Shown piece by piece: positions 1,749 to 15,032 of a stretch of DNA of 15,032 nt (positions are counted from its first letter, which is position 1; each line of letters begins with the position of its first letter). The position numbers and the translations under genes are program-made. This DNA comes from a bacterium. GTDB lineage: Bacteria > SAR324 > NAC60-12. The notes under the pieces were generated by a model that made no database searches, was not told the origin of the DNA, and saw only the letters and a program-made list of their open reading frames with translations. The DNA lies in contig CBDDTI010000082.1 in the NCBI GenBank assembly GCA_965233585.1, positions 1 through 15,032 on the forward strand. Reading direction: 5' to 3'.

Positions 1749-1840
1749 AACTGCAATATACGATGAAGAGTGAGCGAGTGTCTTAACAGAGTGGTAGTGC
1801 AGAGGACAGTAATGGGGAACTGTTTTATTCTCAGGGGGGC

Positions 1841-1914
1841 GAGTGTTGTAGAGAAATGTACCTACATCAGGCTCTTTCGAGCTTGATGTAGGCACATTTC
1901 TTCTCAAAACACTC
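1841..1914. repeat. Imperfect inverted repeat / hairpin
   Basis: agaaatgtacctacatcaggctc (1852-1874), loop tttc, gagcttgatgtaggcacatttct (1879-1901): 23-bp arms with 2 differences. Outer gagtgtt (1841) pairs with aacactc (1908-1914). Confidence 0.85.
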
Positions 1915-2019
1915 TCAAAACACCTTAAAACAGTCTAAAACGGGCTTTTAACCATCCGTTTACGCATGAAAACCATCTTGATGCGCTCTCAAACCACCTT
2001 GATGGCATCTACATTGAGT

Positions 2020-2392
2020 CTGTTGCAGGCTCAATCGAGCCTGTTTTCGTCTGTAATCGGCCTGCAACCGGCTTGTTTTCGTCTGCAATCGGCTTGCAAC
2101 AGGCTCGATCGAGCCTGTAATCGGCCTGCAACCGGCTTGTTTTCGTCTGCAATCGGCTTGCAACAGGCTCGATCGAGCCTGTAATCGGCCTGTTGCAAGC
2201 CGATTGCAGACGAAAACAAGCCGATTACAGGCTCAATCGAGCCTGTTGCAAGCCGATTACAGGCTCAATCAAGCCTGTTGCAAGCCGATTACAGGCTCAA
2301 TCAAGCCTGTTGCAAGCCGATTACAGGCTCAATCAAGCTTGTTGCAGGCCGATTGCAGACGAAAACAAGCCGGTTACAGGCTTGTTGCAACA
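2020..2392. repeat. Palindromic tandem-repeat block (32-bp units, 64-bp period on the left) arranged as inverted arms
   Basis: Unit ccgattacaggctcaatcaagcctgttgcaag starts at 2221, 2253, 2285 and 2317 (variant at 2349). Perfect 20-bp palindrome acaggctcgatcgagcctgt at 2099-2118 and 2163-2182. Perfect 36-bp inverted repeat 2133-2168 / 2188-2223. Confidence 0.92.
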
Positions 2393-2659
2393 TCTATTTT
2401 TCTTCATTGTCAAATTGTTCTCAATTTAAAAGCACGAAGAAAGGTTCTGAGAATAAAAAATGATTTAAAATTCCGTCATTTTTCTTAAAACCCGCTCAAA
2501 TGTAATTCTTCAAACTCCATATTTTAGGAAGAAGAATTTTCAAAGTTGTTTTTGATAAGACAAAAATTTGATCGCGCGTATCAAAGTTTTCATCCAATCC
2601 TGTTAAAAATTCAACTCACAGTCGTTTTCAACAGTTTCAATTATCAAGACATCTATTTT

Positions 2660-3246
2660 CTCATAGTTTTTTGATAAATGTGAGGGGTTAAAATTTTTTA
2701 ATTATAATTTATCTCTCACATTTATTTTAAAATTGTGAGTTTTTACTACACTCAAGATAACTCCGAAGACCATCTTTATTTCTCATGCTTTTTTGACAAA
2801 TGTGTGCAGGTCTAAATTCTTTAATTAAATTTGACCTGTCACATTTGGCATTAAAATTGTGAGCTATTACTCAACTCTAAAATCCAAACACTGCTTATCA
2901 TTTCATGCTTTTTTTACTCTTGTACGGGTCTCATAATGTTTTATTATATATGACACTCGCCACAAGAGTAATTAAATTGTGAGCAATTATTTAGCAGAAA
3001 CGTTGTTAAAATCGCAGTCAACTTTCATCACATTTCATCATCAAGATCTACGTCTTACGCTTTTTTAACTTTTGTGCGCGATTTAAATCTTTAATTTCAA
3101 TATTTGAATCCACATAAAAGTTACAAAATTGTGAGCAACTACTTCACACCGAAAATGTTAACATCTAATCTTCATACTTTTTTGGCACTTGTTTAACTCC
3201 AAAATTTTTATTTATTTGGATTTGCTCAAGTACCATTAAATTGTGA
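2660..3246 (+). ncRNA. Cluster of five ~75-82-nt stem-loops, putative pri-miRNA cluster
   Basis: Hairpins at 2660-2739, 2782-2863, 2902-2983, 3054-3135 and 3172-3246. Each has a ctcat(a/g)ntttt-like 5' flank pairing with aaattgtga(g), plus a unit-specific self-complementary upper stem. G:U pairs in the lower stem favour a + strand RNA. Confidence 0.6.
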
Positions 3247-3307
3247 TTACCAACTCGTCCAAATATTTGTCAAGCACGCTTTTATTTATTAGTTGTGTCT
3301 ATGTTAA

Positions 3308-3712
3308 ATGCTGTTTCAGTCGTGCAGAATGGGTGGACAAGTCAACAACCAACCAACAACAGGATCACCGCATAATTCTGACTGGGATTCTGGTCCTGAC
3401 GAAGCTGGTATTTACAGTACTTCAGATCCAACTCACATTGTGCATTGTATGCGTCGCATTTCTGCTCATCTTCGCAGAATCAACGAGTCTTTGGAATCAT
3501 TGGACAGTGAATTGGTAAACTACAGGACCTGCTTCAAAGACAAACTTCTTGGAAAACCTAATACTTCTGGCGACTCAGGCACCAGGTTGTGGTGGTATCG
3601 TGAAATCCAAAACGAGCTAAAAGTGTTTCATTTTTATGCGTCTTTTTGCATGAAATTGTTGTGCAAAGATTTTTGTTTGGAACAACACGCGGTTGATGGA
3701 GAAGAAGTATGA
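3308..3712 (+). CDS. Hypothetical protein (134 aa; alternative start at ATG 3329)
   Basis: ATG-initiated ORF in AT-rich DNA; its stop overlaps the next start (ATGA at 3709-3712). No recognisable domain. Confidence 0.5.
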   Translation: MLFQSCRMGGQVNNQPTTGSPHNSDWDSGPDEAGIYSTSDPTHIVHCMRRISAHLRRINESLESLDSELVNYRTCFKDKLLGKPNTSGDSGTRLWWYREIQNELKVFHFYASFCMKLLCKDFCLEQHAVDGEEV

Positions 3713-4032
3713 ACAACAACATTTGGCTAAAGATGAACCCAAATACACATCAACGCTCAGAACCAAACCACCGTTTTGAAGAATTGGATCAATTTCATCA
3801 AGATTTGCCAAAATCTCCTAGCCTCGAGCGTTTTTACTCTGACCCTTGCACTGATTTATGTGCTGTGATTGGAATGATCTTTACTATTATTATCTCTATT
3901 TGTGCTTGTATATGGTTGATATCGGTATCAACTTGTAACGCTCTAAAATCGCTTGCTTTAACAAATCGTACTTTAGAACTTTCTTTAGTAAATTTTACCA
4001 ATAATTCATTGTTTTTAAATGATACGTTTTAA
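3709..4032 (+). CDS. Small single-pass membrane protein, probably glycosylated (107 aa)
   Basis: Hydrophobic stretch LCAVIGMIFTIIISICACIWLISV, then N-x-S/T sequons NRT, NFT, NNS and NDT. AATAAA follows the stop; the ORF converges on the minor capsid gene. Confidence 0.6.
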   Translation: MNNNIWLKMNPNTHQRSEPNHRFEELDQFHQDLPKSPSLERFYSDPCTDLCAVIGMIFTIIISICACIWLISVSTCNALKSLALTNRTLELSLVNFTNNSLFLNDTF

Positions 4033-4043
4033 TAGAATAAAAT

Positions 4044-5795
4044 TTAAATTGGGTTTTTAATCACAATATTTAAAATAACACTTTTTTCGTCGTCGAATTC
4101 AATTAAGTCTCCGTCTAATCTCCTTAATTCAATCTTCATGTTGTCTAAATAATCAACATTGCATTTGATATATTCTAAATGCTCAAAATGGATAGAGCAG
4201 TAGTCATTTTGTTTTGACTGACCGATTGTGGGAATAATTCTAAGTATTGGGTAAAATTTGTCTCCGACAATAGAATGCTGAACAAAATTGGCATAACAAA
4301 TCATAACACCGGGATACAGTTTGTAAATGTCTATTGGTTGTGGTGCTTGATAAACTGAGTAATTTCTTACGGCAAAAAAATGGTAGTTGTTTTGATCACT
4401 AACTCTTTGTTTTTCTTCATTGGGGTAATCGTACATTCCTAAAATCGGACAAAAGCTTTGTGGAAATCCAATTATAAAAATTTGATCAGTTTTAGCCGTA
4501 ATTCTTAAATATCCATTAACGTTTTCAAAATATACTAGTTTCTTTAATTCTTCTGTCAATAAATCATTCATTGCCGTTGTTAAATCGTTAGAGTCACAAA
4601 AATAATTTTTTGGTATATTCAATTTGTGTTCTTCCTCTATGTTTCCATCCTTAACCAGTTTTATAATTATTGGTTCATTAGCGATTGATTCTGGAATGCT
4701 GCATATGCTGTCGGGAAAAGAAATATCCATCAGGGCAATTTTCGCGTTTGGATTTAAATGCAGTGGATGTTTTAAATGCACCCAAAAGCTACTATTTGTA
4801 TTTTCGTAATCCAATTTGGCATCTACTTTCGAATCGATTCGCACGTGTCTCAATTCGTGATCCATGTTTTTTTCTTTCTCCCTCAAATGGTAATGAATTA
4901 AAGACGGTTGACCTTCGTTTAAGCTTAAAAGATTTCCAAAAGCATCTGTGAATTGAGAGTTTATCGTCTCAATATTGGTTTGCCGCACTTGATAATATCT
5001 GACCTTTTTTACATTATGGTAAAAATAATGGCCCTCCATTTGCTTAGGTAAAGTTGTTGTAAACATAATTGTGGAATAATTATCACTGTTAGGAACGTCG
5101 GAAATAATATTTGATTTTACGTGAACTAAACCGGGTTTTAAAACGGAAGTCACTTTATTTGCTATGGTTTGAAACCTAAAATTTTTTTGTAACGGATAAT
5201 ACACATATTCGTTACCAAAATATTTAATTGATTTTTCTCCAGAAAAAAACACTCTGTCTTTATAACATCTTAACTTTATAATTTTTATTAACTGTTGATG
5301 AATTAGTAAGTATCTATTATAATTGTAATTTTCATTTTCCGTCTCATTTTCGGTTTCTTTTTTAGGACCTTCTTCAATTATGTAGAATCTTTTAGTTTCA
5401 CCGTCTGATTCGAGGTCACCAACAACCATTTTCATTCCTTCCTTGTAAATAAATTGCATCAAATTTTGCATTAATCTATATACTGTCAGATCTTCTTCAT
5501 CTAAATCAGGCAAAACCCAAACAGATTTTGTCTGGTTTAAAATCTCGGTCTCTATCTCCTCTTCTGAAGAATTTATAGATGTTAATTCGTTTTTTAGCGT
5601 TATGACACCGATTTGACCTTTTGTCATGGTTAATTGGTTGTAATTATAATGTAACCCCATAGATACTATTCCAATTTCCCATTCTCTATTTTTCAAATCT
5701 AAATTTTGCGGAAATAAATTGGTAAAGGAATTTAAAGTATTTTTGACGTCCGTATTGGAACCAGCGTTTGACACGCAATAAATGTTATAATCCAT
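4044..5795 (-). CDS. Maverick minor capsid (penton-like) protein with two tandem domains, 583 aa
   Basis: N-terminal motif SN..NTLNSF..FPQNLDL..EWEIGI and C-terminal motif ICYANFVQHSIVGDKFYPILRIIP..F..LEY....IELRRLDG match the Maverick minor-capsid pattern as I recall it. Each motif appears twice. Confidence 0.8.
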   Translation of the reverse strand: MDYNIYCVSNAGSNTDVKNTLNSFTNLFPQNLDLKNREWEIGIVSMGLHYNYNQLTMTKGQIGVITLKNELTSINSSEEEIETEILNQTKSVWVLPDLDEEDLTVYRLMQNLMQFIYKEGMKMVVGDLESDGETKRFYIIEEGPKKETENETENENYNYNRYLLIHQQLIKIIKLRCYKDRVFFSGEKSIKYFGNEYVYYPLQKNFRFQTIANKVTSVLKPGLVHVKSNIISDVPNSDNYSTIMFTTTLPKQMEGHYFYHNVKKVRYYQVRQTNIETINSQFTDAFGNLLSLNEGQPSLIHYHLREKEKNMDHELRHVRIDSKVDAKLDYENTNSSFWVHLKHPLHLNPNAKIALMDISFPDSICSIPESIANEPIIIKLVKDGNIEEEHKLNIPKNYFCDSNDLTTAMNDLLTEELKKLVYFENVNGYLRITAKTDQIFIIGFPQSFCPILGMYDYPNEEKQRVSDQNNYHFFAVRNYSVYQAPQPIDIYKLYPGVMICYANFVQHSIVGDKFYPILRIIPTIGQSKQNDYCSIHFEHLEYIKCNVDYLDNMKIELRRLDGDLIEFDDEKSVILNIVIKNPI

Positions 5796-5801
5796 TCCAC
5801 G

Positions 5802-6884
5802 TTATTGTGACACATCAACTACATCTTTCTCATATGTCCAACTAGGGTTTTTATACCCTCTCCATTTCACCAAAACCATGTTTTCACCTGTTTTTTTATC
5901 TTTTTTTGTTCGTAAAACCTTTTCAATCACAAATAATTCCGGCTCAATCACGGGAGTAAGTTCACTCTCATAAAAATTTCCTTCCAGAGTTTCATCCTGT
6001 TCTAAAGTTTCCAATTCATAAGTAGGTTTAGGCAAACGAGTAAAAATTGATTTTATTTTAAAAATTTCTTCCTTAAATTGTTGTGTAAAACCTCTGTCAA
6101 ATTTTCCCTTCATTATGCTAATGCGCACGGTTTGACCAATTTTGTATTTTGGTCTTTTTCTTTTAAACTTCGAATAATGCAATTCCTGTTTTCTTCTAAT
6201 AAAATAAGTCCGACCAGGGAGCTCAGCTTCAGCGGGTGACATCCCAATCATTCGATGTTTACGATGGTTGTAAGTATGAACAAGAAAAGGTAACGCATCG
6301 ATGTACCTATCTGTATTTTCGTGAGTCATGTATTTAAACATCAGATTTTTCAAAGTTCGGTTAAATCTTTCCACAAAAGGGGCGTGCACAAAATTGTTGC
6401 TGTGTAATAGAAGAATGTTATTGTTTTTGCAGTAGGCTTGAAACAATTTATTCTTTATTTCTGCACCTTTATCAGCTAAAATTCTACGAGGAAACTTTTT
6501 TGCTCTTCTCATAATAGACTCAAACCCCTCCATAAAAGTTTTTGCTGTTTTATTTTTTAAGGGTTCTACAAACGCGAATCGTGTAAAAATATCAATAGCT
6601 GTTAAAAGGTATCTATTCCCATCATTTTCTTCGATCAAATTTCCTAAATCTATAAGATCAATTTGAAATTGATATCTCTTATGATAAGCAAATGTTGGAT
6701 TTCTAGGTTTAGGTAATTTTGGTTGTTTATGAAGTGTGTAAGAATCAGTTCCCTTTAACCATTCTTCTATTGTTGTCAAGGGAATTTTTTTTCCATAATA
6801 ATAATAAATCAACGCAGGAGATGCAAAAGCTATTGGTGAGCCTGGTCTTGCATATTCTTTTAAAAAAATCTCTTTTGTTGTCAT
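5802..6884 (-). CDS. Retroviral-like (rve) DDE integrase with C-terminal chromodomain, Maverick type
   Basis: QFQIDLID (D), YLLTAIDIFTRFA, ILADKGAEI (D), FVERFNRTLK (E), YNHRKHRMIGMSP. Chromodomain FVIEKVL...LVKWRGY..PSW. Confidence 0.96.
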   Translation of the reverse strand: MTTKEIFLKEYARPGSPIAFASPALIYYYYGKKIPLTTIEEWLKGTDSYTLHKQPKLPKPRNPTFAYHKRYQFQIDLIDLGNLIEENDGNRYLLTAIDIFTRFAFVEPLKNKTAKTFMEGFESIMRRAKKFPRRILADKGAEIKNKLFQAYCKNNNILLLHSNNFVHAPFVERFNRTLKNLMFKYMTHENTDRYIDALPFLVHTYNHRKHRMIGMSPAEAELPGRTYFIRRKQELHYSKFKRKRPKYKIGQTVRISIMKGKFDRGFTQQFKEEIFKIKSIFTRLPKPTYELETLEQDETLEGNFYESELTPVIEPELFVIEKVLRTKKDKKTGENMVLVKWRGYKNPSWTYEKDVVDVSQ

Positions 6885-6890
6885 TTCTTT

Positions 6891-7292
6891 TTAAAACAGG
6901 GGTTGTTTAGTTATTCTCCGTCTTTTTTTCCTAGATTTATCAATTGACGGGGTTTTCCTCTTTCTGCTCGAATTTTGAGCTCGATATTCGTTGTTGGTAT
7001 CTGCTTGTCTAGCAGCGTTAAGCAAAATACCGCGAGTAGCTGATTTTAAACGTTGTTTAGCTTTTCTGCCGACCGGTTGACCCTCCAAAGCCTCTAATGC
7101 AGTTTCTACCGCCGCCTTTGTCGCCTCTTTTTTCAAAGCTTTACCTGCGGATCTTATCGGTGCGCTTCTAGCCACTTTTCCAATAGTTTTTACCGCTGAT
7201 CTTGCTACCGGCATTAAACCGCGAAAGATTCCAGAAAAAAGTGATCCGATTCCCGAGCCTCGTTGCCAACGTAAGCCGCTGTGGTAATTCAT
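6891..7292 (-). CDS. Basic Maverick virion core-type protein (133 aa)
   Basis: QRGSGIGSLFSGIFRGLMP N-terminal motif typical of small Maverick proteins; K/R-rich C-terminus RKRKTPSIDKSRKKRRR. Confidence 0.8.
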   Translation of the reverse strand: MNYHSGLRWQRGSGIGSLFSGIFRGLMPVARSAVKTIGKVARSAPIRSAGKALKKEATKAAVETALEALEGQPVGRKAKQRLKSATRGILLNAARQADTNNEYRAQNSSRKRKTPSIDKSRKKRRRITKQPLF

Positions 7293-7300
7293 ATATTTTC

Positions 7301-8020
7301 TTATTGCTCTAGACTTTTAAGACATCTGTATAAAGACATAACACTGACGCCTAAAATACGAGCCGTATTTTTGACGCTCGGATATAGTGCTCTTGTTTCT
7401 TTTAAAAAGGCATAAGCACATGCTGCTAATAAAGTCCTAGGAGCAAAAGAACTATTTTCATTTTTATTTAGTTTTTCTTTTATAGTTGTCATCTCTTGAT
7501 AATTTAACTGTAGAGGCTGTAAAAAATATTCTGCCATATCTTTTGCTTTTATAGAATTTTCTGTCTTGATTGTGTTGGTCGAATCTTGTCTGTATAATTT
7601 TATCCATCTCCATACCGTTTTTGGACTAATACCAATTTCCTGGCACAAATGACTTATTGGACGGGGAATTTTTTCCTTTATTAAACTTTGATACAATGCC
7701 ATAGCAATTAAGCCTTTTGGATTAATTTTAATTTTTCCATTTTTTTGATAATGCCACGCTGCTATTTCTGTCCACAAATCAAAAATAGTTTTTGTAACAT
7801 CATTATTTAAATGTAATTTATTACATAAATTTTTTAAAATATTTTTTTCTTTCTTTAAATGTTCGCTGTTTTGTTCAAAGTCTTCATTTAAATTTTTTAT
7901 TTTTTCCCATTTTGTTTCTAAATTTGGTTCACAATATATTTTATCAATAACTAAACCACACTCAGTACACACTACGTCTCCTTGTCTGGTGTCTTCTATT
8001 ATATATTGATGAATGCACAT
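7301..8020 (-). CDS. TFIIB: TFIIB-like transcription initiation factor (Zn ribbon + two cyclin folds); probable start ATG 8020
   Basis: Zn ribbon CIH...EDTRQGDVVCTECGLVID. First cyclin repeat ends LIAMALY...KIPRPISHLCQEIGIS. Second repeat has PRTLLAACAY...VKNTARILGVS. Confidence 0.88.
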   Translation of the reverse strand: MCIHQYIIEDTRQGDVVCTECGLVIDKIYCEPNLETKWEKIKNLNEDFEQNSEHLKKEKNILKNLCNKLHLNNDVTKTIFDLWTEIAAWHYQKNGKIKINPKGLIAMALYQSLIKEKIPRPISHLCQEIGISPKTVWRWIKLYRQDSTNTIKTENSIKAKDMAEYFLQPLQLNYQEMTTIKEKLNKNENSSFAPRTLLAACAYAFLKETRALYPSVKNTARILGVSVMSLYRCLKSLEQ

Positions 8021-8126
8021 TTTAATCAAATCTAATTTTTGATCATAATTTCATTGTTTATTGAATGAAGTTCAAAATTTGACTGATTTTATAAATAAAC
8101 TGACGTAATCTTTTATTATATTGAAT

Positions 8127-8669
8127 TTATTCAGTTTTATATTTTTTCAGCAATTCATAAATAATTTTTATTCCTTGTTTAGCGTCTTTTTCGCAGGAAG
8201 CACCAATTATTACTATTTTTCCAGACGAAAATATTAAAGCAGAACACTTCTTTAATGTTAAAAACATTCCAGGAAATTTCTCACAGTCGTATCTTTTTTG
8301 GATAATTTCAAAATCTACATTTAATTTCAAATTGTTGTAAAATGTTAATAAATTGATTTTTGATGACATATGACACAAACAAGTCATGTTTTCTATTTTA
8401 AACTTTTCAGTAATAAATTTATTACTTATAACAAGTTTTAATTCGTCTAATGCTTTTGGTATATGCTCTGTGGAAGGGATTTTAGTAATATTTACGTGGA
8501 AATTTTGATTTTGCTTTGTTTTAGTAAACACAATAAAAGAATATTTTTTCTTAACAACAGTAAAATTATTATAATGTTTTAGTACATTATCAGTATTAAA
8601 AGAAATTTTGTCGCTGTCGATGAGACGAATTTTGCAACTGATTTTAACATTGCTGACCATCACTTCCAT
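8127..8669 (-). CDS. TBP: TATA-binding protein-like (core only, divergent first repeat), 180 aa
   Basis: Second repeat KIENM...INL...YDCEKFPGMF...ALIFSSGKIVIIGA...IYELLKKY matches TBP YEPELFPGL...LIFxSGKVVxTGA. First repeat VSNVKIS..NFTVV..FIVF..VNITK is degenerate. Confidence 0.9.
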   Translation of the reverse strand: MEVMVSNVKISCKIRLIDSDKISFNTDNVLKHYNNFTVVKKKYSFIVFTKTKQNQNFHVNITKIPSTEHIPKALDELKLVISNKFITEKFKIENMTCLCHMSSKINLLTFYNNLKLNVDFEIIQKRYDCEKFPGMFLTLKKCSALIFSSGKIVIIGASCEKDAKQGIKIIYELLKKYKTE

Positions 8670-8675
8670 CTTGGT

Positions 8676-10025
8676 ATGGGCTTGCCCGACAAAAGCGGAA
8701 TTGCTGGATTAGCCGTGGAACAAAACGATGGCACAGAAAGTGGTTTAGCGCTTCACGCACCCTTAGAAGTGGAAACGGGTCTATTGGAAGGGGCTCACGT
8801 TATTTACAATAGCGTGGCTTCTATCACCAACACCGGACCGGTAGAATTTCTTGTTCCTCGCGACAACGAGTGTTCTTTTATACTGAGTCAAACCAGACTC
8901 AGTGGACATTTTGTAGTGACAAATGATGATGGTGGCTTTGTTACGGACGCAAGTAAAACCGCGTTGGTAAATCATTTTGCTGCTTGTTTATTCAGTCAAG
9001 TAGAAGTATATTTGAATGGAGTTCAGGTAGCTGATTTAAGTTCGGCAGTCACCTACCCCTGGAGAATGTTTTTACAATCATATTTAAGTTACAATATTGA
9101 CGTAAAAGACACTTATCTGTCTGCTGAAGGATATTATCCTGAAACTGAAGACGAAACTACTGCCACCAAAATTACTGATGAAGTTTCTTCTAGTTCTTTG
9201 AAAAAAAGAAAGAATTTAATTTTAAACGGAAAAAAAGTATTTTTCAACTCGCGTATAGCTGTTGATCTGTTTGACACTGATCGATTCTTACCACCAAATG
9301 TGGATATCAAGATAAAATTGGTTAGATCGGCTGAAACATTTGGTTTGCTTCAAGATCCTGCAGCAGCAAAACCTTTCAAGATTGTGTTGAAAGATGTCAA
9401 ATTGCATATGAGAAAAGTGTTGCCCACGTTGATAATACGAGAAAGTTTCAAAAACAAACTTTTAAAAGAACCGTGCTACCTGCCTTTTAGCTCTACACGT
9501 TTAAGACATTACGTTATTCCTCAAGGCGTGTCGTCTTTTAACATCGCTAATATTGCTAATGGAACATTACCCAAACAAGTGTTTTTTGTGATGGTTCACA
9601 ATCAGGCTATGTCGCATGCTCCCGACAAAAATCCTTTTAATTTTCAACACTTTAATCTTTCCTCGTTTAATTTAAAAAAGAACGGACAATGCGTATTTCC
9701 CAAACCTTTTCAACCTAACATAGGGGAAGGGGACGCCGTTGACTTATATCGACATTTATACGACAGTATAGGTATTTCGCACGGCAATCAGTCCATTGGC
9801 TTGACGTATGATGCTTTTATAGATGGAAGATTTTTTCTGGCGGCCGACTTGACACCGGATCAATGTAATTCTTACCACACACATCCAGAAAATTATGGAA
9901 ATTTAGATTTAGAGTTGGCTTTTTCCCAAGTCACTCCCCATCCAATATACGTTCTAGCCTTATCTATTTTTAACTCCGGTATTAAAATAGATCAATTTCA
10001 ACAAGTCATGAAAGGAACCAATTAA
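8676..10025 (+). CDS. Maverick major capsid protein (double jelly-roll, hexon-like), 449 aa
   Basis: GPVEFLVP, LFSQVEVYLNG, DLFDTDRFLPPNVDIKIKLVR, LPKQVF..MV, NPFNFQHF, DLTPD and GNLDLELAF are conserved Maverick MCP blocks; the gene sits next to the protease. Confidence 0.92.
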   Translation: MGLPDKSGIAGLAVEQNDGTESGLALHAPLEVETGLLEGAHVIYNSVASITNTGPVEFLVPRDNECSFILSQTRLSGHFVVTNDDGGFVTDASKTALVNHFAACLFSQVEVYLNGVQVADLSSAVTYPWRMFLQSYLSYNIDVKDTYLSAEGYYPETEDETTATKITDEVSSSSLKKRKNLILNGKKVFFNSRIAVDLFDTDRFLPPNVDIKIKLVRSAETFGLLQDPAAAKPFKIVLKDVKLHMRKVLPTLIIRESFKNKLLKEPCYLPFSSTRLRHYVIPQGVSSFNIANIANGTLPKQVFFVMVHNQAMSHAPDKNPFNFQHFNLSSFNLKKNGQCVFPKPFQPNIGEGDAVDLYRHLYDSIGISHGNQSIGLTYDAFIDGRFFLAADLTPDQCNSYHTHPENYGNLDLELAFSQVTPHPIYVLALSIFNSGIKIDQFQQVMKGTN

Positions 10026-10028
10026 AAT

Positions 10029-10511
10029 ATGAAGGGTGGGTTATCAAATATCTTTTTAAACAATTACATTAGACCCAGATGTAAGAATTTCGTCGGGGTA
10101 TTTTCGGTCGACGACTTGCCATCTGATCTGCTTTCATTGCCTTGCTGTCTGATCGCTAACTTATCCAAAAGAAATCAAGAAGGATCTCATTTCGTGGCAA
10201 TGTACATTAACAAGAAAAATCAACTTTATTATTTTGATTCTTTCGGTTTTTTACCGCCGATATGGAATAAATGCCTGATGAAGTTTTTACGACCCTGGAT
10301 AGAGAAGAACTCCTTCAAAATTGTCTTATCTCACTCAATTCAAAGTTTCCGTTCTTTGTTTTGCGGATGGTACACGTGCGCATTTTGTTTATCTGTGGGC
10401 AACAATTTAATGACCCCTCAACAATTCGTTAAAATATTTGTAAAAAATCCCAAATCAGAAAATGATAAAATTGTAACTCATTTTATAAAAAAAATTGAAA
10501 ATAAATGTTGA
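10029..10511 (+). CDS. Adenain-like (Ulp1/C5) cysteine maturation protease
   Basis: FVGVFSVD, IANL...GSHFVAM (His), YFDSFG (Asp), IQS...CGWY (Gln/Cys). Confidence 0.94.
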   Translation: MKGGLSNIFLNNYIRPRCKNFVGVFSVDDLPSDLLSLPCCLIANLSKRNQEGSHFVAMYINKKNQLYYFDSFGFLPPIWNKCLMKFLRPWIEKNSFKIVLSHSIQSFRSLFCGWYTCAFCLSVGNNLMTPQQFVKIFVKNPKSENDKIVTHFIKKIENKC

Positions 10512-10523
10512 TATATTTTACTT

Positions 10524-11984
10524 TCATAACTTTGGATATTTTCCTGAAAAAAGTTTTTTAACAGAATCTACTTTAGCTTCTGATTTAGACATTTTTCTTG
10601 TTTTTGATCTGGTTTTTGCGGGAGACGTACTAGCTTCAATTGGGTCCCTTTTTATTGGGCTTTTAGATTGTGACATTTTCATTGATTTTGATCTGGTTTT
10701 GGTTTGTGCAGGAGTCATGTTAGCATCAGCAGAATTTCTTTTTGTTGCACCCTTTGATTTAGCTTTTCCAGCTGAAAATCGTATTTTAACAGGTGTAAGT
10801 GGAAATGAAGGGGAAGAGCTTCCAATTCCTCTTAATCTTCTTTTTCGAGGGGTAGAGGTCATTCCAAAAATTTTATTTTGATTTCTTACAGACAATTCTT
10901 TATAATGATCTTTCATCATATGTTTGGCAAATTGTGGAATGCCAACATATTGCTTCCCGCAATTGGGAAAGGGACAAACTATTTTGCCGGCCGCATTCTT
11001 TTCTTTCACTGCTTTTGCAATTGGTGTATTTCGCCAATTTAACACAACTGGAGATTTTATTGCGGAAAGTGTGTATGAGTAATCCGTTTCATTTGAGCTG
11101 TTTCTTCTAGCGTAAGGGCTGGAAATCATTCCTTTAATGGTCTTTTTGTCTTTCAAAGCTATATCTTTAGGATGATCTTTTAGCAAATGTTTGCCTAATT
11201 GCCCTTCGTCAACATATTGCTTCCAACAATCAGGAACTGGACAAACTAATTTGCCTTTTGAATTTCTTTTCGTCATCGCTTCTAAAACAGGTGTTTCTCG
11301 CCATTCTTCTCGTTTGGTAGCAACAGGAGTTGAATAAGCTGATTCGTTCGGACTTTTTGTTTTTTCAGGACTAAGAGATTTTTCTGCAACAAATTGTCTT
11401 TCAATAATGGGGGTACTAGGTAAATTATTTTCTTCTTGTTGGGGAATTTCAGTGGGTGTTCTGTAAAGAGATACGTCCGTGAGATCCATATTGGTATCAA
11501 TTCGAGCAGGTGTTAGTGCATTTGGTATTTCTTCTCGTTGCATAATTTGGGTGGATGGTGATCTTAAAACCGGGTGGTAAGCGCGGTCAATACTGCTACC
11601 TTTTTGGGTAACTCGACCAGGAGACATTACATTCTGTATTTCTTCTCGTTGAGGAATTTGAGTGGATGGTGATCTCGAAAGAGATTGGTAAGTACGACCC
11701 ATGCTATCAGATTGGGCAATTGATGTGACATTCGGTAATTTATCAGACCCAAAACGAAGTAATTTATCCCCAGTTTGGATTGTTTTCTGTCTGTCTTGTA
11801 GATTTTTAAATTTAATGGCATTTTCAATATAGTTGGTTGTTTCCGGTTTTTCATTCATAGAAATAAGTTCCTTTTTTGATTCATCGTCTTCCGTATTTTT
11901 TATTAATGAATAATATAATCTTTTAGGTACTAAAAACATGGAATACATTTCATCATGTGGTTTTATTTTTACTCCTGAGCTCAT
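10524..11984 (-). CDS. 486-aa protein with two C2H2 zinc fingers, S/T-P-rich repeats and a basic tail
   Basis: CPVPDC-x12-HLLKDH (11172-11243) and CPFPNC-x12-HMMKDH (10905-10976). Repeats RSPSTQI.QREEI. N-terminal MFLVP and position after the PW-like gene recall Maverick PZ (inference). Confidence 0.85.
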   Translation of the reverse strand: MSSGVKIKPHDEMYSMFLVPKRLYYSLIKNTEDDESKKELISMNEKPETTNYIENAIKFKNLQDRQKTIQTGDKLLRFGSDKLPNVTSIAQSDSMGRTYQSLSRSPSTQIPQREEIQNVMSPGRVTQKGSSIDRAYHPVLRSPSTQIMQREEIPNALTPARIDTNMDLTDVSLYRTPTEIPQQEENNLPSTPIIERQFVAEKSLSPEKTKSPNESAYSTPVATKREEWRETPVLEAMTKRNSKGKLVCPVPDCWKQYVDEGQLGKHLLKDHPKDIALKDKKTIKGMISSPYARRNSSNETDYSYTLSAIKSPVVLNWRNTPIAKAVKEKNAAGKIVCPFPNCGKQYVGIPQFAKHMMKDHYKELSVRNQNKIFGMTSTPRKRRLRGIGSSSPSFPLTPVKIRFSAGKAKSKGATKRNSADANMTPAQTKTRSKSMKMSQSKSPIKRDPIEASTSPAKTRSKTRKMSKSEAKVDSVKKLFSGKYPKL

Positions 11985-11986
11985 TT

Positions 11987-12361
11987 TTAACGACGACGTC
12001 GCGAACTCTTATTTGCAATAATTTGAGCCAAAAGAGGGATGACGGTGCTGGCGATCGCTGATAAAACTCCTAAAATTCCGCCCTTTTGTAATATTTTTCT
12101 TTTTTTTGAAATGTCGGAAGAACGACGCGGCGGTGCAGCAAGACGTCTAAATTCTGTCACATGAGCTCTTATCTTTTTTTGAAGACGTGTTCGTACTTTG
12201 CCATGTATGGGCAAGTCACCGTTCAACACGTAATGTAATATACGACAAAGCAATTCAACTCCACGATCGTCCAAATGACTTAAAAAATTGGCACAATCCT
12301 GATGTTTTAATTTTTTTATTACATAAAAAAGTGAACTAGCTTTTCCTAATGTTTTAGACAT
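11987..12361 (-). CDS. Small basic Maverick protein (PW-like), 124 aa
   Basis: LCRILHYVLNGDLP and KKRKILQKGGILGVLSAIASTVIPLL match the conserved small ORF found beside Maverick ATPases. Confidence 0.82.
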   Translation of the reverse strand: MSKTLGKASSLFYVIKKLKHQDCANFLSHLDDRGVELLCRILHYVLNGDLPIHGKVRTRLQKKIRAHVTEFRRLAAPPRRSSDISKKRKILQKGGILGVLSAIASTVIPLLAQIIANKSSRRRR

Positions 12362-12381
12362 TTTGACAGTTGCAATTTTTT

Positions 12382-12395
12382 ATTTTTCTTAAATA
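12382..12395 (-). promoter_or_regulatory. Candidate TATA-like promoter motif TATTTAAGAAAAAT upstream of the PW-like gene
   Basis: Begins 34 nt before the ATG; an identical 14-mer lies upstream of the ATPase gene. Confidence 0.4.
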
Positions 12396-12409
12396 GATAT
12401 GAAAATCCT

Positions 12410-13105
12410 TTAAACGGTAACGTAAGCTTTCATCAGTCCCTCGTACGGAAAAATGTTGCTTCGAATTCTGACTTTATCGTCTTGTTGTTGATGGAAATCT
12501 AGAAGGAGATATCCGTGACTTCGACCGTTAACAGCTTCCCTGTATGCTTTATTTAAAATTCCGACTCGTCCGGGGAAAATTTGTTTAGCCAAATGCGCAA
12601 CCGCACTTCTGTCCCGAGGATTGTTAAAAAGAACCATATACTGTGTGTTTATGCTTAATGTCCGCAAATCACCTTTTTTATCAAATAAATTTTGACACAG
12701 AAAAACGGTGAAACAATTGTAGTGATGAGTCAAAACCGTAAAAAAATGTTTTAATATTTGTCCAACATCGTCTAAATAATCATCAAAAACAACTAATTTG
12801 GGCATTTTTCTTGGATATGATTCCAAAATATCTTTTAGTTCTTCAATCGAATTTGGAATACTTTTAAATTTACGAAATGTTGGAAAGCGAGAGTTTGAAC
12901 GTTTGTCTCGATTCATATCATCTTCCATGTATTCATAAGCTTTTTGTGGTTCTTTGTAGAACAACAACATTGTTTCTGGTGGAGTTGCAAAATATTCATG
13001 CCTACCAACCACTAAATGTTTAAGCCACGTTGTTTTTCCACTCGATGTTGGGCCAACAATTAACATGTTGGAAGGAATACTGAACCTTAAATCAAAACCA
13101 TCCAT
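12410..13105 (-). CDS. A32/FtsK-like genome-packaging ATPase
   Basis: Walker A GPTSSGKT, Walker B LVVFDD, then THHYN, FLCQNLF, RTLSINTQY, NNPRD and GYLLLD. Confidence 0.95.
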   Translation of the reverse strand: MDGFDLRFSIPSNMLIVGPTSSGKTTWLKHLVVGRHEYFATPPETMLLFYKEPQKAYEYMEDDMNRDKRSNSRFPTFRKFKSIPNSIEELKDILESYPRKMPKLVVFDDYLDDVGQILKHFFTVLTHHYNCFTVFLCQNLFDKKGDLRTLSINTQYMVLFNNPRDRSAVAHLAKQIFPGRVGILNKAYREAVNGRSHGYLLLDFHQQQDDKVRIRSNIFPYEGLMKAYVTV

Positions 13106-13134
13106 TTTGCTAGTTTTTGAAAAATATTTAAAAA

Positions 13135-13148
13135 ATTTTTCTTAAATA
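13135..13148 (-). promoter_or_regulatory. Candidate TATA-like promoter motif TATTTAAGAAAAAT upstream of the ATPase gene
   Basis: Begins 43 nt before the ATG; identical to 12382-12395. Confidence 0.4.
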
Positions 13149-13168
13149 AAAGTAACAATATGTTTTAT

Positions 13169-13961
13169 TTATTTACAAATAGGGCATTTAGATGATTTGT
13201 TGTTGACAATAAGACAATTTCCTAGTGATAAAGTGTGATATCCGCAATTCAAAATGTGTCTTTTGGAATCCATTGCTGATAACGCAATCTTTCTTTGAAA
13301 ACATGTCCGAATTTTATGATTCTTTGATCTTAAGTTTTTGAAAGATTTGTAAATTAGAACAGCCCGTTTCAGACATTTTTTGTAATCGTTATAGGTTAAT
13401 TGCTTTTTTATGCTAGATTTTTTTAAACCTTTGCAAATTTTCTTTTCTTCTGTTTTGTTTTTGTCTGAAAAATCAGTAATTTTCATAGAATAACATTTTG
13501 GACGTGAGCCTATAAAGTGAGTAATAGCTGCTCTGCCTTTTAGTTCGTCTTTGAAATAAAAAAGCTGATTGGCTCTACTGTCATCGAAAAGAGGATGTTG
13601 TTTGGGGTACTTTGAAAAATCAAATATGTGCTCCAATTTTTTCATTTCCCTTTCCAAGTTGTTGCATCTTACTTTTAAGAGAAAAGAATCCGTGTCTGAG
13701 AAACATATAGACACATTTTCTTCGCCAAAATGTTGTTGAATCGTGTCATAATACGATCTGTACATAAACAACTTGGACAATTCCAAAATAGAAAATCCAA
13801 CAGCTAAAGGCTTCCTGAGCTCTATTATTGCCGGCTTCTTGTTGACAGCCACCAAGTTTTCATTGATGATTTGAAACTGTTGATGTGTTGACCAAGACTG
13901 GTTTTCCTTAAGCTCTGTTCATCACCACAAAGGATCACTTCAGAGTAATTTCGAACATTTT
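13169..13961 (-). CDS. polB: Protein-primed family B DNA polymerase, C-terminal part (probable last exon; one frameshift near 13900-13920)
   Basis: KPLAVGFSILELSKLFMY, FSDTDSF (motif C), FKDE, RPKCY, KGLK and DSKR. Upstream, ENVRNYSEV is in a different frame from QQFQIINENLVAV. It is preceded by ...ttattctgcatttcAG and an in-frame TAA. Confidence 0.9.
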
Positions 13962-14179
13962 CTGAAATGCAGAATAAGATTTATTTAATAAAGAAAATTG
14001 ATTATGTGCGCAATCACCTCAGCTAACTAGCCGTCCCATATCACATTTCATTTTCCTCTGTAATTAGCAATGTACTATAATTTACTTCAATTTGAAATCA
14101 TTCCTTTTTTAAAGCCCGACATAAACGGACATCAAAAATTCCAACAAAATAAACACTAAGTCAAAATGGATAAAAAAGA

Positions 14180-15031
14180 TCAGGAAAAGAGCAAAGCTTT
14201 TTGGTTAAAAGTAATAAAATCAGGCCAGGAGGAGGCAACTTCAAGTCCGACTTCTGGCAGTAGCTCTACCGGGGCTGCGGCTGGGGGAGCATGGTCATCT
14301 ACTAAAACTGAGGGAGCATGGTCATCTTCTGGGGCTGCGGGTGGAGGATCATGGACATCTTCCGAGCGTCCCGTGGCACCTGCTTGGCCATCACGGACTC
14401 CGTACAAGTCCGTCCCACAAAAATCAGGGTCGGGGTCGTGGAAGAGCGCATCTACTGCTGGGGTCGGGGGCGGAGGAGCATGGTCATCCACTAAAACCGG
14501 AGGAGCATGGTCATCTTCTGCGGCCTTGGGTGGGGAATCATGGTCATCTTCCGAACGTCCTGTGGCACCTGCTTGGCCATCACAGACCCCGTACAAGTCC
14601 GTCCCACAAAAATCAGAGCGGGAGTCGTGGAAGAGCGCATCTACTGTCGGAGCCGGGAGTGGGGGAGCATGGTCATCTACTAAAACTGGAGGAGCATGGT
14701 CATCTTCTGGGGCTGTGGGCGGAGGAGCATGGTCATCTGCTAAAAATGAGGGGGCATGGTCATCAACTAAAACTGCGGGAGCATGGTCATCTTCTGCGGC
14801 CTTGGGTGGGGGATCATGGGCATCTTCCGAACGTCCCGTGGCACCTGCTTGGCCATCACGGACCCCGTACAAGTCCGTCCCAAAAAAATCAGAGCCGGAG
14901 TCGTGGAAGAGCGCATCTACTACCGGGGCTGGGGGCAGGGGAGCATGGTCATCTACTAAAACTGGAGGAGCATGGACATCTTCTGGGGCTGTGGGCGGAG
15001 GAGCATGGTCATCTGCTAAAACTGAGGGGGC
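14180..15031 (-). CDS. Pro/Asp-rich repetitive protein (DDHAPP repeats), 5' end outside the window
   Basis: The frame stays open from the window edge (APSVLADDHAPP...) to the stop at 14180. Higher-order repeat spacings of 189 and 276 bp are multiples of 3. Confidence 0.55.
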   Translation of the reverse strand, partial: APSVLADDHAPPPTAPEDVHAPPVLVDDHAPLPPAPVVDALFHDSGSDFFGTDLYGVRDGQAGATGRSEDAHDPPPKAAEDDHAPAVLVDDHAPSFLADDHAPPPTAPEDDHAPPVLVDDHAPPLPAPTVDALFHDSRSDFCGTDLYGVCDGQAGATGRSEDDHDSPPKAAEDDHAPPVLVDDHAPPPPTPAVDALFHDPDPDFCGTDLYGVRDGQAGATGRSEDVHDPPPAAPEDDHAPSVLVDDHAPPAAAPVELLPEVGLEVASSWPDFITFNQKALLFS

Positions 15032-15032
15032 A
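14260..15032. repeat. GC-rich nested tandem repeat
   Basis: gagcatggtcatc recurs about every 27-33 bp. The block cgtacaagtccgtccca starts at 14401, 14590 and 14866. Confidence 0.92.

Follow-up and report, generated by a model that had tools for sequence, protein, structure and literature searches.

Small nuclear DNA viruses, and Mavericks with them, are generally regarded as fully dependent on host general transcription factors. The beta- and gamma-herpesviruses, nuclear DNA viruses that lack an RNA polymerase, encode a TBP mimic (KSHV ORF24, HCMV UL87, EBV BcRF1), which drives late TATT-type promoters with host RNA polymerase II (Pol II); this large protein contacts Pol II directly, has five further viral proteins as partners and is not accompanied by a TFIIB homologue. 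The locus described here would by analogy follow the same working principle, as proposed below for an element without a polymerase gene, and differs in that a small TBP is accompanied by a separate TFIIB-like protein. A virus-encoded TBP/TFIIB-like pair is known from the poxviral factor VITF-3, in the portion of PMC12917281 available to us, and resembles the pair of this locus in that both proteins are diverged from the cellular forms. The Nucleocytoviricota encode a multisubunit RNA polymerase themselves, and their transcription takes place in viral factories or the cytoplasm, whereas the element analysed here, of about 23 kb, has no polymerase gene. Closest in gene content are the Mavericks, Polintons, adintoviruses and Maverick-like (MELD) viruses, which, as far as the accessible part of Starrett et al. 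2021 (PMC8502044) describes them, share with our element the integrase and multicopy integration and, as putative assignments in our element, the protein-primed DNA polymerase B (polB), an A32-type ATPase, an adenain-like protease and the capsid genes. The legend of Fig. 5 in that paper labels a "TBP" gene in MELD viruses, and no TFIIB-like gene is named in its text or matched in one of its supplements (0 matches).

The window, by which we mean the whole 15,032-nt stretch of DNA that was analysed, consists of host flank (1-1845) followed by the left ~13 kb of a Maverick/Polinton-type element of ~22.9 kb. The sequence-only reading had recognised a Maverick, which is indeed present, yet it is not wholly contained: its left end lies at about 1846, and the contig stops before its right end is reached. 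All four element copies inspected have a sharp left end, each with a different flank, about ten copies match the element at 96-98% identity to the last base of the window (blastn), and C523:10759-33635 (~22.9 kb) is a full-length copy, in which no terminal inverted repeat was found. The features of the window are as follows (coordinates, strand, description).

1..1845, no strand: host flank, GC 0.51-0.60; other element copies are homologous only from ~1843-1846
13-1203, minus: reverse-transcriptase ORF of a retroelement in the host flank (Pfam RVT_1, E 8.3e-31)
1846..15032, no strand: Maverick/Polinton-type element, left ~13 kb, stopping at the contig end
1977..2407, no strand: subterminal array of ~32-nt direct and inverted repeats (repeat families D1, D3, I1-I14)
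4044..5795, minus: 583-aa protein, probably a virion protein, following the integrase in all lineages
5802..6884, minus: retroviral-type integrase with a C-terminal chromodomain (Pfam rve, PF00665; Chromo)
6891..7292, minus: basic 133-aa protein (the "core protein" of the sequence-only reading), no Pfam match
7301..8020, minus: TFIIB-like gene, 239 aa; Zn ribbon aa 2-27, linker aa ~28-50, two cyclin-like repeats aa ~50-239
8021..8126, minus: AT-rich spacer upstream of the TFIIB-like gene, with TATA-like runs and a tiny upstream ORF
8127..8669, minus: TBP-like gene, 180 aa, ATG start; repeat 1 (aa 1-84) diverged, repeat 2 (aa 85-180) canonical
8676..10025, plus: putative major capsid protein of the double-jelly-roll type, 449 aa, transcribed away from the TBP-like gene
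10029..10511, plus: putative adenain-like cysteine protease, 160 aa (Peptidase_C5 E 0.0042; 17.2 bits where the cut-off is 21.3)
10524..11984, minus: 486-aa protein, internally repetitive (96-nt direct repeat D4) and carrying two zinc fingers of the C2H2 type
11987..12361, minus: 124-aa protein, conserved in all lineages
12382..12395, minus: 14-mer TATTTAAGAAAAAT, preceding the 124-aa gene by 21-34 nt; identical copy at 13135-13148 (minus) upstream of the ATPase gene
12410..13105, minus: putative 231-aa packaging ATPase (A32/FtsK type), P-loop present
13169..13855, minus: putative C-terminal piece of protein-primed DNA polymerase B (tblastn to polB pieces of other copies)
14100..15032, no strand: GC-rich 276-nt tandem repeats (family D2) interrupting the polB region, common to all close copies

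The integrase has a Pfam match above the cut-off (rve E 2.8e-9, 37.6 bits against a cut-off of 32.6) and a Chromo match at E 6.7e-5. Matches of the ATPase (Pox_A32 E 8.5e-4, FtsK E 6.4e-3) and of the 486-aa protein (zf-C2H2 and FOXP-CC, both weak) fall below the Pfam cut-offs, and neither the 583-aa protein nor the putative capsid has any Pfam match. As a lead only, the ESM Atlas look-alikes of the putative capsid are eukaryote clusters carrying PF21738 (DJR-like_dom) in 15-24% of their members; likewise, look-alikes of the 583-aa protein in the same resource are Preplasmiviricota proteins of ~620 aa, again a lead. In full copies polB is split into at least four ORF pieces and contains a GC-rich repeat of ~1.9 kb, the N-terminal pieces lying beyond the window, and a Pfam search of the window and of the right arm of the full copy returned no polB match and no RNA polymerase domain. 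GC content is 0.24-0.41 over 2501-14000 and 0.47-0.60 in the outer parts of the window; the two genes do share the AT-rich composition of the rest of the element, as had been read from the sequence, yet the GC-rich stretch at 14100-15032 also belongs inside it.

The contig was binned as bacterial, in a bin that also has eukaryote-derived contigs. A bacterial or archaeal locus was considered and rejected because of the chromodomain integrase, the eukaryote-type TFIIB, the retroelement in the flank and the dozens of insertions. The element is virus-like and multicopy, its host a marine eukaryote. All 41 PF00352 matches of the assembly, every one above the cut-off, lie on contigs with the element's own TBP-like copies; with no match off the element-bearing contigs, the host's own TBP/TFIIB were not found in the assembly. 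Sequencing runs containing the stretch or part of it amount to seven records from three studies, with no RNA run among them.

The TBP-like and TFIIB-like genes are adjacent and co-oriented and sit, exactly as the sequence-only reading described, between the basic protein/integrase and the capsid gene, with an 8-bp gap (7293-7300) separating the TFIIB-like gene from the 133-aa gene and a 6-bp gap (8670-8675) separating the TBP-like gene from the capsid gene. The block is ordered protease and capsid in one direction and, divergently from these, TBP, TFIIB, basic protein, integrase and 583-aa protein in the other. Both genes lie within 3.5 kb of every one of the assembly's Maverick integrase copies (38/38); these Maverick copies fall into five lineages with the same gene block, in all of which the protease follows the capsid gene, and TBP identity drops to 33-34%. 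Outside the assembly, the IMG/VR locus L014 carries the whole block at 28-43% identity (capsid ~31%), including the 133-aa gene, whose position after the TFIIB-like gene is kept there and in the lineages. A second locus, L015, has the head-to-head arrangement of capsid and TBP, which is thus present in two unrelated public contigs, one of them (L014) with the whole block. The synteny of TBP, TFIIB and capsid holds in the five lineages and in L014.

Each gene is an open ORF in 39/39 full-coverage copies, so that the earlier description of the genes as intact stands, the word "intronless" going beyond what can be proved. From the 7 of 28 pairs per gene with unsaturated synonymous sites, dN/dS was 0.16-0.28 for TBP and 0.21-0.27 for TFIIB, and close copies (dS ~0.1) gave 0.22 and 0.27; these sequence comparisons indicate that both genes are under purifying selection. 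The 38/38 linkage, the five lineages, the open ORFs, the dN/dS values and the shared synteny together lead us to conclude that the TBP + TFIIB pair are old, selected core genes of a Maverick/Polinton (adintovirus-like) clade, bearing out the view of integral, long-resident genes as opposed to recent host captures.

The two proteins are genuine homologues of the TBP and TFIIB types. For the TBP-like protein, whose intact ORF and TBP-like identity had been read correctly from the sequence, the Pfam TBP family (PF00352) matches at E 4.3e-18 (65.4 bits, cut-off 22.9) over residues 89-177 only, a PDB profile search matches TBPs at E 1e-13 to 4e-8, and the AlphaFold model (pLDDT 91.7) superposes residues 1-179 on the human TBP core 161-337 (Z 16.8, rmsd 2.5, 162 aligned). 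In a structure search with this model the top 38 rows were all TBP and the next, unrelated row had Z 7.2. As in cellular TBP, the two tandem repeats are modelled as forming one saddle, and the C-terminal repeat is canonical, with the TFIIB-contacting stirrup E130-x-F132-P133 invariant in the alignment. Residues F36, F48, F132, F147, N7 and N94 are invariant across 23 TBP-like sequences and would occupy the places of the four intercalating phenylalanines and the two central asparagines, an equivalence given by the HMM alignment in repeat 2 and tentatively extended to repeat 1 from yeast TBP numbering and a non-significant alignment. The element's protein differs from cellular TBP in its repeat 1, which is unrecognisable by sequence (hhalign probability 3%, against 99.6% for repeat 2), confirming the strong divergence already noticed, and which in the model has its first helix shrunk to a single short turn; an N-terminal tail is also missing. 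In canonical TBP, TFIIA is bound on the side of repeat 1.

Under table 11 the TFIIB-like ORF spans 7301-8029 and opens with TTG, whereas its likely eukaryotic start is the first ATG, at 8020; in the sister lineages the ORF begins 9-13 codons earlier. Its Zn ribbon (PF08271, 30.5-31 bits against a cut-off of 29) is present in 17/17 family members and has human TFIIB as its best match. The ribbon follows the pattern C-x-H...C-x2-C, with C2, H4, C18 and C21 invariant in the alignment; the first zinc pair of human TFIIB is C-x2-H, so that the element's C-x-H, kept throughout the family, differs from it. Against the PDB, the family profile finds human TFIIB with a whole-sequence E of 1.1e-9, the match taking in the ribbon as well as the two cyclin repeats, for which profile positions 62-241 align to residues 111-285; archaeal TFB scores no better than 3e-3, and at E<=1 neither Brf nor Rrn7 was matched. 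With the AlphaFold model, the first 32 rows listed by Foldseek were all TFIIB, TFB or Brf. In Z-scores, TFIIB (up to 13.8) has ordinary cyclins close behind (10.5-11.8), and the TFIIB repeat family PF00382 reached 18 bits, below its cut-off of 23.6, with 7/17 members at E<=0.01. The ribbon, the profile and the Foldseek rows together uphold the TFIIB-like identity proposed from the sequence. As in cellular TFIIB, a TFIIB-type ribbon precedes two cyclin repeats, with a helix-turn-helix closing each of them; the protein terminates with the second repeat, with no Brf-type C-terminal extension.

The difference from cellular TFIIB, besides the location of the genes on a mobile virus-like element, lies in the reader/linker, which in the canonical protein serves start-site selection and DNA opening. 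Between ribbon and core the element's protein has ~20-30 unconserved residues, against ~60 in human TFIIB, in agreement with the short region suspected earlier; pLDDT is below 50 at residues 29-51 and no column between Y29 and I79 is invariant. The conserved B-reader and B-linker of a canonical Pol II TFIIB proper are not present in this protein.

We hypothesise that the pair of this polymerase-less element nucleates host Pol II on the element's own promoters, a reading that we infer from the two folds and their conservation and consider rather probable. Given the lack of an RNA polymerase gene, the two proteins probably act inside the host nucleus as a minimal unit for promoter recognition. 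The concave sheet of the TBP-like protein would bind and bend AT-rich element promoters, its canonical C-terminal repeat would dock the cyclin core of the TFIIB-like protein that the element itself encodes, and the cellular-type Zn ribbon of the latter would bring in host Pol II. The diverged repeat 1, on the TFIIA side, and the short, unconserved reader/linker suggest a stripped-down pair, which may work without TFIID and TFIIA and give the element a promoter specificity of its own. A complex prediction that paired the TBP-like protein with residues 55-239 of the TFIIB-like protein, its core, was run without controls; it scored 0.00 and speaks neither for nor against the hypothesis.

The search for promoters brought out the 14-mer TATTTAAGAAAAAT, which is kept in two sister lineages; the exact 14-mer precedes only 2/13 genes, and with up to two mismatches it has 4 matches against 1.2 expected, a number reached by 5/200 shuffles and not significant window-wide. 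TATTWAA was not enriched either (18 occurrences against 12.8 +/- 3.4 in shuffles, 20/200 of which reach 18), and inspection by eye of the upstream regions of six copies gave no shared motif. With only 6 bp between the TBP-like and capsid genes, their promoters would have to sit within coding sequence, and a sliding scan across this junction gave a weak dip in synonymous divergence (0.22-0.38, against 0.30-0.74 elsewhere in the capsid gene). The sequence-only reading had the pair redirecting host Pol II specifically to late promoters, which these searches do not support: there is no enriched or shared promoter motif and nothing separates late from early genes. The lack of an element-wide motif, like the lack of canonical features in repeat 1 and in the reader/linker, would also suit partly disabled mimics, viral proteins that compete with host TBP/TFIIB for DNA or Pol II and damp host transcription or innate responses. 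We regard such a decoy or shut-off function as unlikely, since both genes are kept in 38/38 copies under apparent purifying selection with their DNA-facing and zinc positions invariant, and a decoy would have no need for both a DNA-binding saddle and a complete ribbon and core.

The TBP-like protein belongs to a wider family of one-sided TBPs, in which only the TFIIB-binding half is canonical. A profile search recovered at least 113 clusters of this type, and a branch with SH-aLRT 100 separates 113 one-sided rows from 27 canonical TBP rows in a quick tree with SH-aLRT support only, the canonical rows being the few ranked highest by the viral profile; the clade of the window and L014 fall into different sub-clades of the one-sided TBPs. 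Among the family members 101 are unlabelled; one label encountered among the relatives is the generic JGI "TATA-box binding protein". Contig searches gave two short loci only in metagenomes and no locus in genomes. IMG/VR contained no relative of the type beyond one Maverick-like contig, and scans of it with two alignments, A3 of the distant family and A2 of the TFIIB-like proteins, came back empty, blanks that weigh little since the A2 patterns also missed L014, which has a TFIIB-like gene.

That sole IMG/VR relative, L014, lies on a contig whose label assigns it to a giant-virus bin, and the other known TBP/TFIIB pairs, in the part of PMC12917281 available to us, come from viruses with their own polymerase. 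Both points would fit a virophage-like element that uses the pair to make its promoters readable by the multisubunit polymerase of a large DNA virus infecting the same cell, in parallel to poxviral VITF-3. The L014 contig is itself Maverick-like, with an integrase and the same block, so that its bin label probably reflects co-binning; moreover, ribbon and profile have cellular (human) TFIIB as their best match, the copies are integrated at many host sites, and the look-alikes of the capsid (a lead only) come from animal genomes, all of which makes dependence on a helper virus quite improbable.

TFIIB-like factors serve all three polymerases, and Brf1 and Brf2 are among the structural matches, so a Brf-like initiation module for Pol III, or one for Pol I, with small non-coding RNAs of the virus as its products was also weighed; it appears very unlikely, as the protein lacks the Brf-type extension and any Brf sequence match at the threshold given above, and the window yielded neither a tRNA nor an Rfam RNA. 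That the pair are inert passengers, functionless captured host genes hitch-hiking in a recently amplified element, might draw on the polB region of this lineage, which is split and interrupted by the GC-rich repeat so that the lineage might be non-autonomous, but this most improbable reading is close to refuted by ORFs open in 39/39 copies across lineages with saturated synonymous sites, by dN/dS of ~0.2 even between close copies and by synteny kept in unrelated datasets.

Recruitment of host Pol II by the pair remains our preferred reading. As to novelty, a gene labelled "TBP" had already been placed in Maverick-like viruses, and the herpesviral mimic offers a precedent for the principle; the TFIIB-like gene and the pair were not found in print, a literature search, covering the accessible portions of the sources, having returned no report of either in Mavericks. 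Compared with the MELD viruses, in so far as PMC8502044 describes them, the pair here belongs invariably to the core block throughout a clade. More tentatively, and with somewhat less than even confidence, we propose that a large and old animal-type Maverick clade has, as a core pair, a private minimal pre-initiation nucleator made up of the one-sided TBP and a TFIIB with a cellular-type ribbon and almost no reader/linker.

If this is true, general transcription factors would for the first time be known from a group of small nuclear DNA viruses that lack a polymerase, such viruses would recruit host Pol II to their own promoters independently of TFIID and TFIIA, and the 100-plus unlabelled relatives of the TBP type among public sequences would mark an unrecognised Maverick radiation, for which the one-sided TBP may serve as a cheap marker in genomes and metagenomes. 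Since Mavericks and Nucleocytoviricota share ancestry, the pair also bears on the origin of the TBP/TFIIB-like factors of giant viruses. It would offer a natural minimal TBP/TFIIB system in which to define the strict requirements of Pol II recruitment, and its conservation in a polymerase-less element of ~23 kb would make promoter recognition itself virus-encoded in this group.

The contig that constitutes the window (one entire 15,032-base contig, C82, in a bin of 12 Mb and 747 contigs) is eukaryote-like despite its bacterial bin. Positions 1-1845, which are GC-rich, carry a reverse transcriptase gene at 13-1203(-) (Pfam RVT_1, E 8.3e-31); this host-flank retroelement adjoins or surrounds an element insertion. 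From about 1846 the sequence is AT-rich (GC 0.24-0.41), and this part is 96-98% identical in about 10 further contigs, through the window's final base. Homology begins at the same base in 4 copies, with flanks that differ in all four. The shared start base, the differing flanks and the near-identical contigs together indicate a multicopy integrated element, of which the left ~13 kb lie in the window and which is complete at ~22.9 kb in contig C523 of the same assembly (C523:10759-33635). At 14100-15032 the element has GC-rich tandem repeats, an internal part of it that is common to all close copies. Just within its left end, at 1977-2407, lies an array of dense ~32-nt direct and inverted repeats with inverted-repeat arms of up to 156 nt (87% complementary), and short blastn matches from other contigs of the assembly stack at 2001-2500 to a depth of 78-123. 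The assembly is rated bacterial, 92% complete with 2% contamination, yet it contains dozens of eukaryote-type Maverick contigs (35 of them with TBP-like matches), contigs to which marker-based contamination scores are blind. The gene set, read from ORF calls and a Pfam search of the window, is that of a Maverick/Polinton or adintovirus-like element.

Gene order of the element in the window
Two small ORFs, (+), first in the gene order
583-aa protein, (-), ESM Atlas look-alikes are Preplasmiviricota proteins (lead only)
rve integrase with chromodomain, (-), Pfam
133-aa basic protein, (-), ORF
7301-8020, (-), TFIIB-like gene, 239 aa, between the basic protein and the TBP-like gene
8127-8669, (-), TBP-like gene, 180 aa, between the TFIIB-like gene and the capsid gene
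449-aa putative capsid protein, (+), ESM Atlas look-alikes (lead only)
Adenain-like protease, (+), Pfam match below cut-off
10524-11984, (-), 486-aa protein with two C2H2 fingers and a 96-nt internal repeat
124-aa protein, (-), ORF
A32/FtsK-type ATPase, (-), Pfam match below cut-off
From 13169, (-), polymerase B, C-terminal piece

The source of the element is probably an animal. ESM Atlas look-alikes of the 449-aa protein fall in eukaryote clusters, Arthropoda and Echinodermata being commonest, in which 15-24% of the members carry a DJR-like domain (a lead only). No tRNA or Rfam family was found in the window. The right arm of the full copy (L010, C523:22500-34500) encodes a second C2H2 zinc-finger protein of 239 aa (L010 5591-6310(-)), so that the transcription-related genes of the element may exceed the TBP/TFIIB pair; it also encodes a 232-aa Ser/Thr-rich mucin-like protein with a hydrophobic N-terminus (L010 9970-10668(-)) and a 157-aa very acidic protein, both lacking a Pfam match. 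The polymerase B gene is split over several ORFs, at least 4 pieces in the window lineage (420, 118, 110 and 228 aa; window 13169-15032 and L010 629-5538), the last two separated by a ~1.9-kb GC-rich tandem-repeat block common to all close copies. In a distant element on an IMG/VR contig (L014 1705-6495) this region likewise comprises several ORFs on one strand, and the split could reflect introns or inserts, not decay. The two most distant lineages (TBP identity to the window 38-42% and 33-34%) carry a tandem pair of genes matching the window's capsid protein (37-43% and 52-56% identity), with such pairs in C47, C401, C530, C593, C93 and other contigs (e.g. C47:9498-12209), in what looks like a capsid gene duplication beside the TBP gene.

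The TBP-like protein is a member of the TBP family. Its Pfam match (PF00352, E 4.3e-18) is confined to residues 89-177, and phmmer against PDB sequences returned 35 TBP entries (E 1e-13 to 4e-8), among which archaeal TBPs rank first because repeat 2 matches both archaeal repeats. The AlphaFold model, built on an alignment of 23 sequences, has a pLDDT of 91.7; TBP fills all of the best 44 Foldseek matches, and VIA-align superposes model residues 1-179 on human TBP 161-337 with Z 16.8, rmsd 2.5 and 162 residues aligned, the top 38 rows all being TBPs and the following row reaching only Z 7.2. The sequence-only reading had described repeat 1 as diverged, and profile comparison agrees, since hhalign gives a probability of 99.6% for repeat 2 against canonical TBP and 3% for repeat 1 alone. 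In the model, repeat 1 has a TBP fold with a sequence unlike TBP, and of its first helix one short turn is left. Invariant positions in the family alignment are F36, F48, F132, F147, N7, N94 and the stirrup E130-x-F132-P133.

The TFIIB-like protein belongs to the family of TFIIB-like factors with a ribbon and two cyclin folds. A TTG start at 8029 is a bacterial-code artefact, and the first ATG, at 8020, stands immediately 5' of the first zinc ligand codon. Sister lineages start 9-13 codons farther upstream, and these codons were lost from the ORF of the window sub-lineage, given an in-frame stop just upstream (8021-8060); a 3-codon upstream ORF lies ahead of the ATG in the same interval. The zinc ribbon (PF08271) scores over cut-off and is present in 17/17 family members, with C2, H4, C18 and C21 invariant. 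Against human TFIIB the single sequence reaches E 3e-5 and a 17-sequence profile E 1.1e-9 in two stretches, the ribbon and positions 62-241 (TFIIB 111-285, both cyclin repeats); weaker profile matches are archaeal TFB (3e-3) and yeast TFIIB (0.04, ribbon only). Pfam HTH models detect a helix-turn-helix closing each cyclin repeat. The structural model is less certain (pLDDT 73, residues 29-51 below 50): TFIIB, TFB or Brf occupies the first 32 listed Foldseek rows, and Z-scores reach 13.8 for TFIIB and 10.5-11.8 for ordinary cyclins, so that the identity rests on the ribbon and the sequence profile, not on the fold alone. The core begins at about residue 46-55, equivalent to human residue 105-113, which leaves a ribbon-to-core linker of ~20-30 residues vs ~60 in human TFIIB, the short region that had been proposed from the sequence; no column within it is invariant in the family alignment. 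Since the conserved reader/linker of canonical Pol II TFIIB is not found, we do not call the protein an orthodox TFIIB.

Both genes are long-established in the element. The ORF calls place them as first described, 8 bp and 6 bp from their neighbours, and tblastn within the assembly found TBP-like and TFIIB-like matches in 35 contigs each. Every contig listed shows the order TBP-TFIIB-basic protein-integrase, head-to-head with capsid-protease, in five lineages by TBP identity to the window (94-100, 86, 74-76, 38-42 and 33-34%). Among 42 TBP matches, 39 exceed 85% query coverage, every one of them an open frame from ATG to stop, and the remaining 3 are fragments of two broken copies; for TFIIB, 39 of 43 exceed that coverage and 39/39 are open. 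Both genes lie within 3.5 kb of the integrase at 38/38 integrase anchors (coverage >0.8, identity >50%). By the Nei-Gojobori method, dS was saturated in 21 of the 28 pairs per gene; the other 7 gave a dN/dS of 0.16-0.28 (TBP) and 0.21-0.27 (TFIIB), and even close copies (dS ~0.1) gave 0.22 and 0.27. Protein-level change is quicker in these two genes than in the capsid, integrase and ATPase genes. The anchors, open frames, dN/dS and five lineages all support long residency over recent capture.

Relatives were also found outside the assembly. An IMG/VR scan recovered the block at one locus, L014, on a 20.6-kb contig whose label places it in a giant-virus bin; protease, capsid, TBP, TFIIB, basic protein, integrase and the beginning of a homologue of the 583-aa protein match there at 28-43% identity. 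No giant-virus hallmark is among its matches, and the contig probably represents a Maverick-like element that was binned together with a giant virus. In L015, a metagenome or WGS contig, protease-capsid stands head-to-head with TBP; another short locus, L016, shows a TBP piece only, and other GTDB species genomes gave no matching locus. Word-based protein searches returned 35 TBP and 42 TFIIB relatives, all in ENA or Logan assemblies; six TBP-like/TFIIB-like cluster pairs have largest contigs of equal size (6759, 10894, 8217, 8156, 6442 and 3196), which suggests that they sit on the same contigs. Moreover, a TBP-like profile search of 1.84 billion representatives retrieved 4320 proteins at E<=1e-3 (1052 at <=1e-10, 11 at <=1e-30). 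The best 150 of the 4320 are mostly 165-190 aa and align to the full length of the profile, its odd repeat 1 included, in a single stretch, whereas canonical TBPs match its repeat-2 half, twice. In a quick IQ-TREE analysis with SH-aLRT support only (140 rows: 7 copies from the assembly, L014 and 132/150 representatives; of the 18 outside the tree, 13 are <150 aa, >260 aa or tandem-duplicated), a branch with support 100 parts 113 one-sided rows, with canonical repeat 2 and diverged repeat 1, from 27 canonical rows. The 113 include the window's clade of 11 rows (support 95) and, in a different part, the 5-row clade of L014 (support 99). An IMG/VR scan with an alignment of the other 101 one-sided rows found no locus.

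Both proteins are conserved and have the expected TBP and TFIIB folds, and we are highly confident that they are real, selected homologues. Neither the window nor the right arm of the full copy yielded an RNA polymerase domain. The C-terminal stirrup of TBP is the TFIIB-binding side and the N-terminal stirrup the TFIIA side, so the TBP-like protein would keep the half for pairing with TFIIB, the other half being remodelled. The ribbon of its partner, nearest human TFIIB, would dock host Pol II, and the short variable reader/linker would imply altered start-site selection or DNA opening. We hypothesise, with moderate confidence in the statement as a whole, that these selected homologues serve the element as its own promoter-recognition pair, working with host Pol II. 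In function, the late-gene TBP mimic of beta- and gamma-herpesviruses comes closest; as a gene pair, the closest counterparts are the TBP/TFIIB-like factors with which large DNA viruses serve viral polymerases (PMC12917281). The sequence-only reading is supported in part, on identity and residency; its redirection of Pol II is a proposal against which several results count: no promoter motif common to the element genes was found in upstream regions, the 6-bp capsid-TBP gap forces promoters into coding sequence, and synonymous change dips only weakly at that junction. Identical copies of a 14-mer, TATTTAAGAAAAAT, precede the 124-aa gene by 21-34 nt (12382-12395(-)) and the ATPase gene by 30-43 nt (13135-13148(-)). 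Slightly altered versions are retained in the 86% and 75% lineages, related T-G/T-TAAG cores occur in distant ones, and the 14-mer is a possible promoter element restricted to these two genes.

A decoy or host shut-off factor is the best of the alternatives, and still an unlikely one. Factors serving a helper virus's polymerase seem less probable again. Brf appears among the structural matches of the TFIIB-like protein, Brf and Rrn7 are absent from its profile matches in PDB sequences, and we give a Pol III/Pol I module little credence. Inert passengers, for genes with such dN/dS, are the least credible reading.

A full-text search, with subscription papers, figures and bioRxiv supplements outside it, found no paper on a TFIIB-like gene or a TBP+TFIIB pair in Maverick/Polinton/adintovirus elements. 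Term searches of PMC11161782, PMC8097293, bioRxiv 10.64898/2026.10.13.758929 and PMC11131425 returned no passages on TBP, TATA or TFIIB; their sole 'transcription factor' passage, in PMC11131425, concerns VLTF3. A bioRxiv preprint on Bamfordvirae mentions TFIIB for giant viruses only. The one precedent found is a 'TBP' label that Starrett et al. (PMC8502044) use in the legend to their Fig. 5; a supplement of that paper holds no matching mention. What is new here is a clade of Mavericks in which the TBP+TFIIB module is fixed, together with a large undescribed family of one-sided TBPs.
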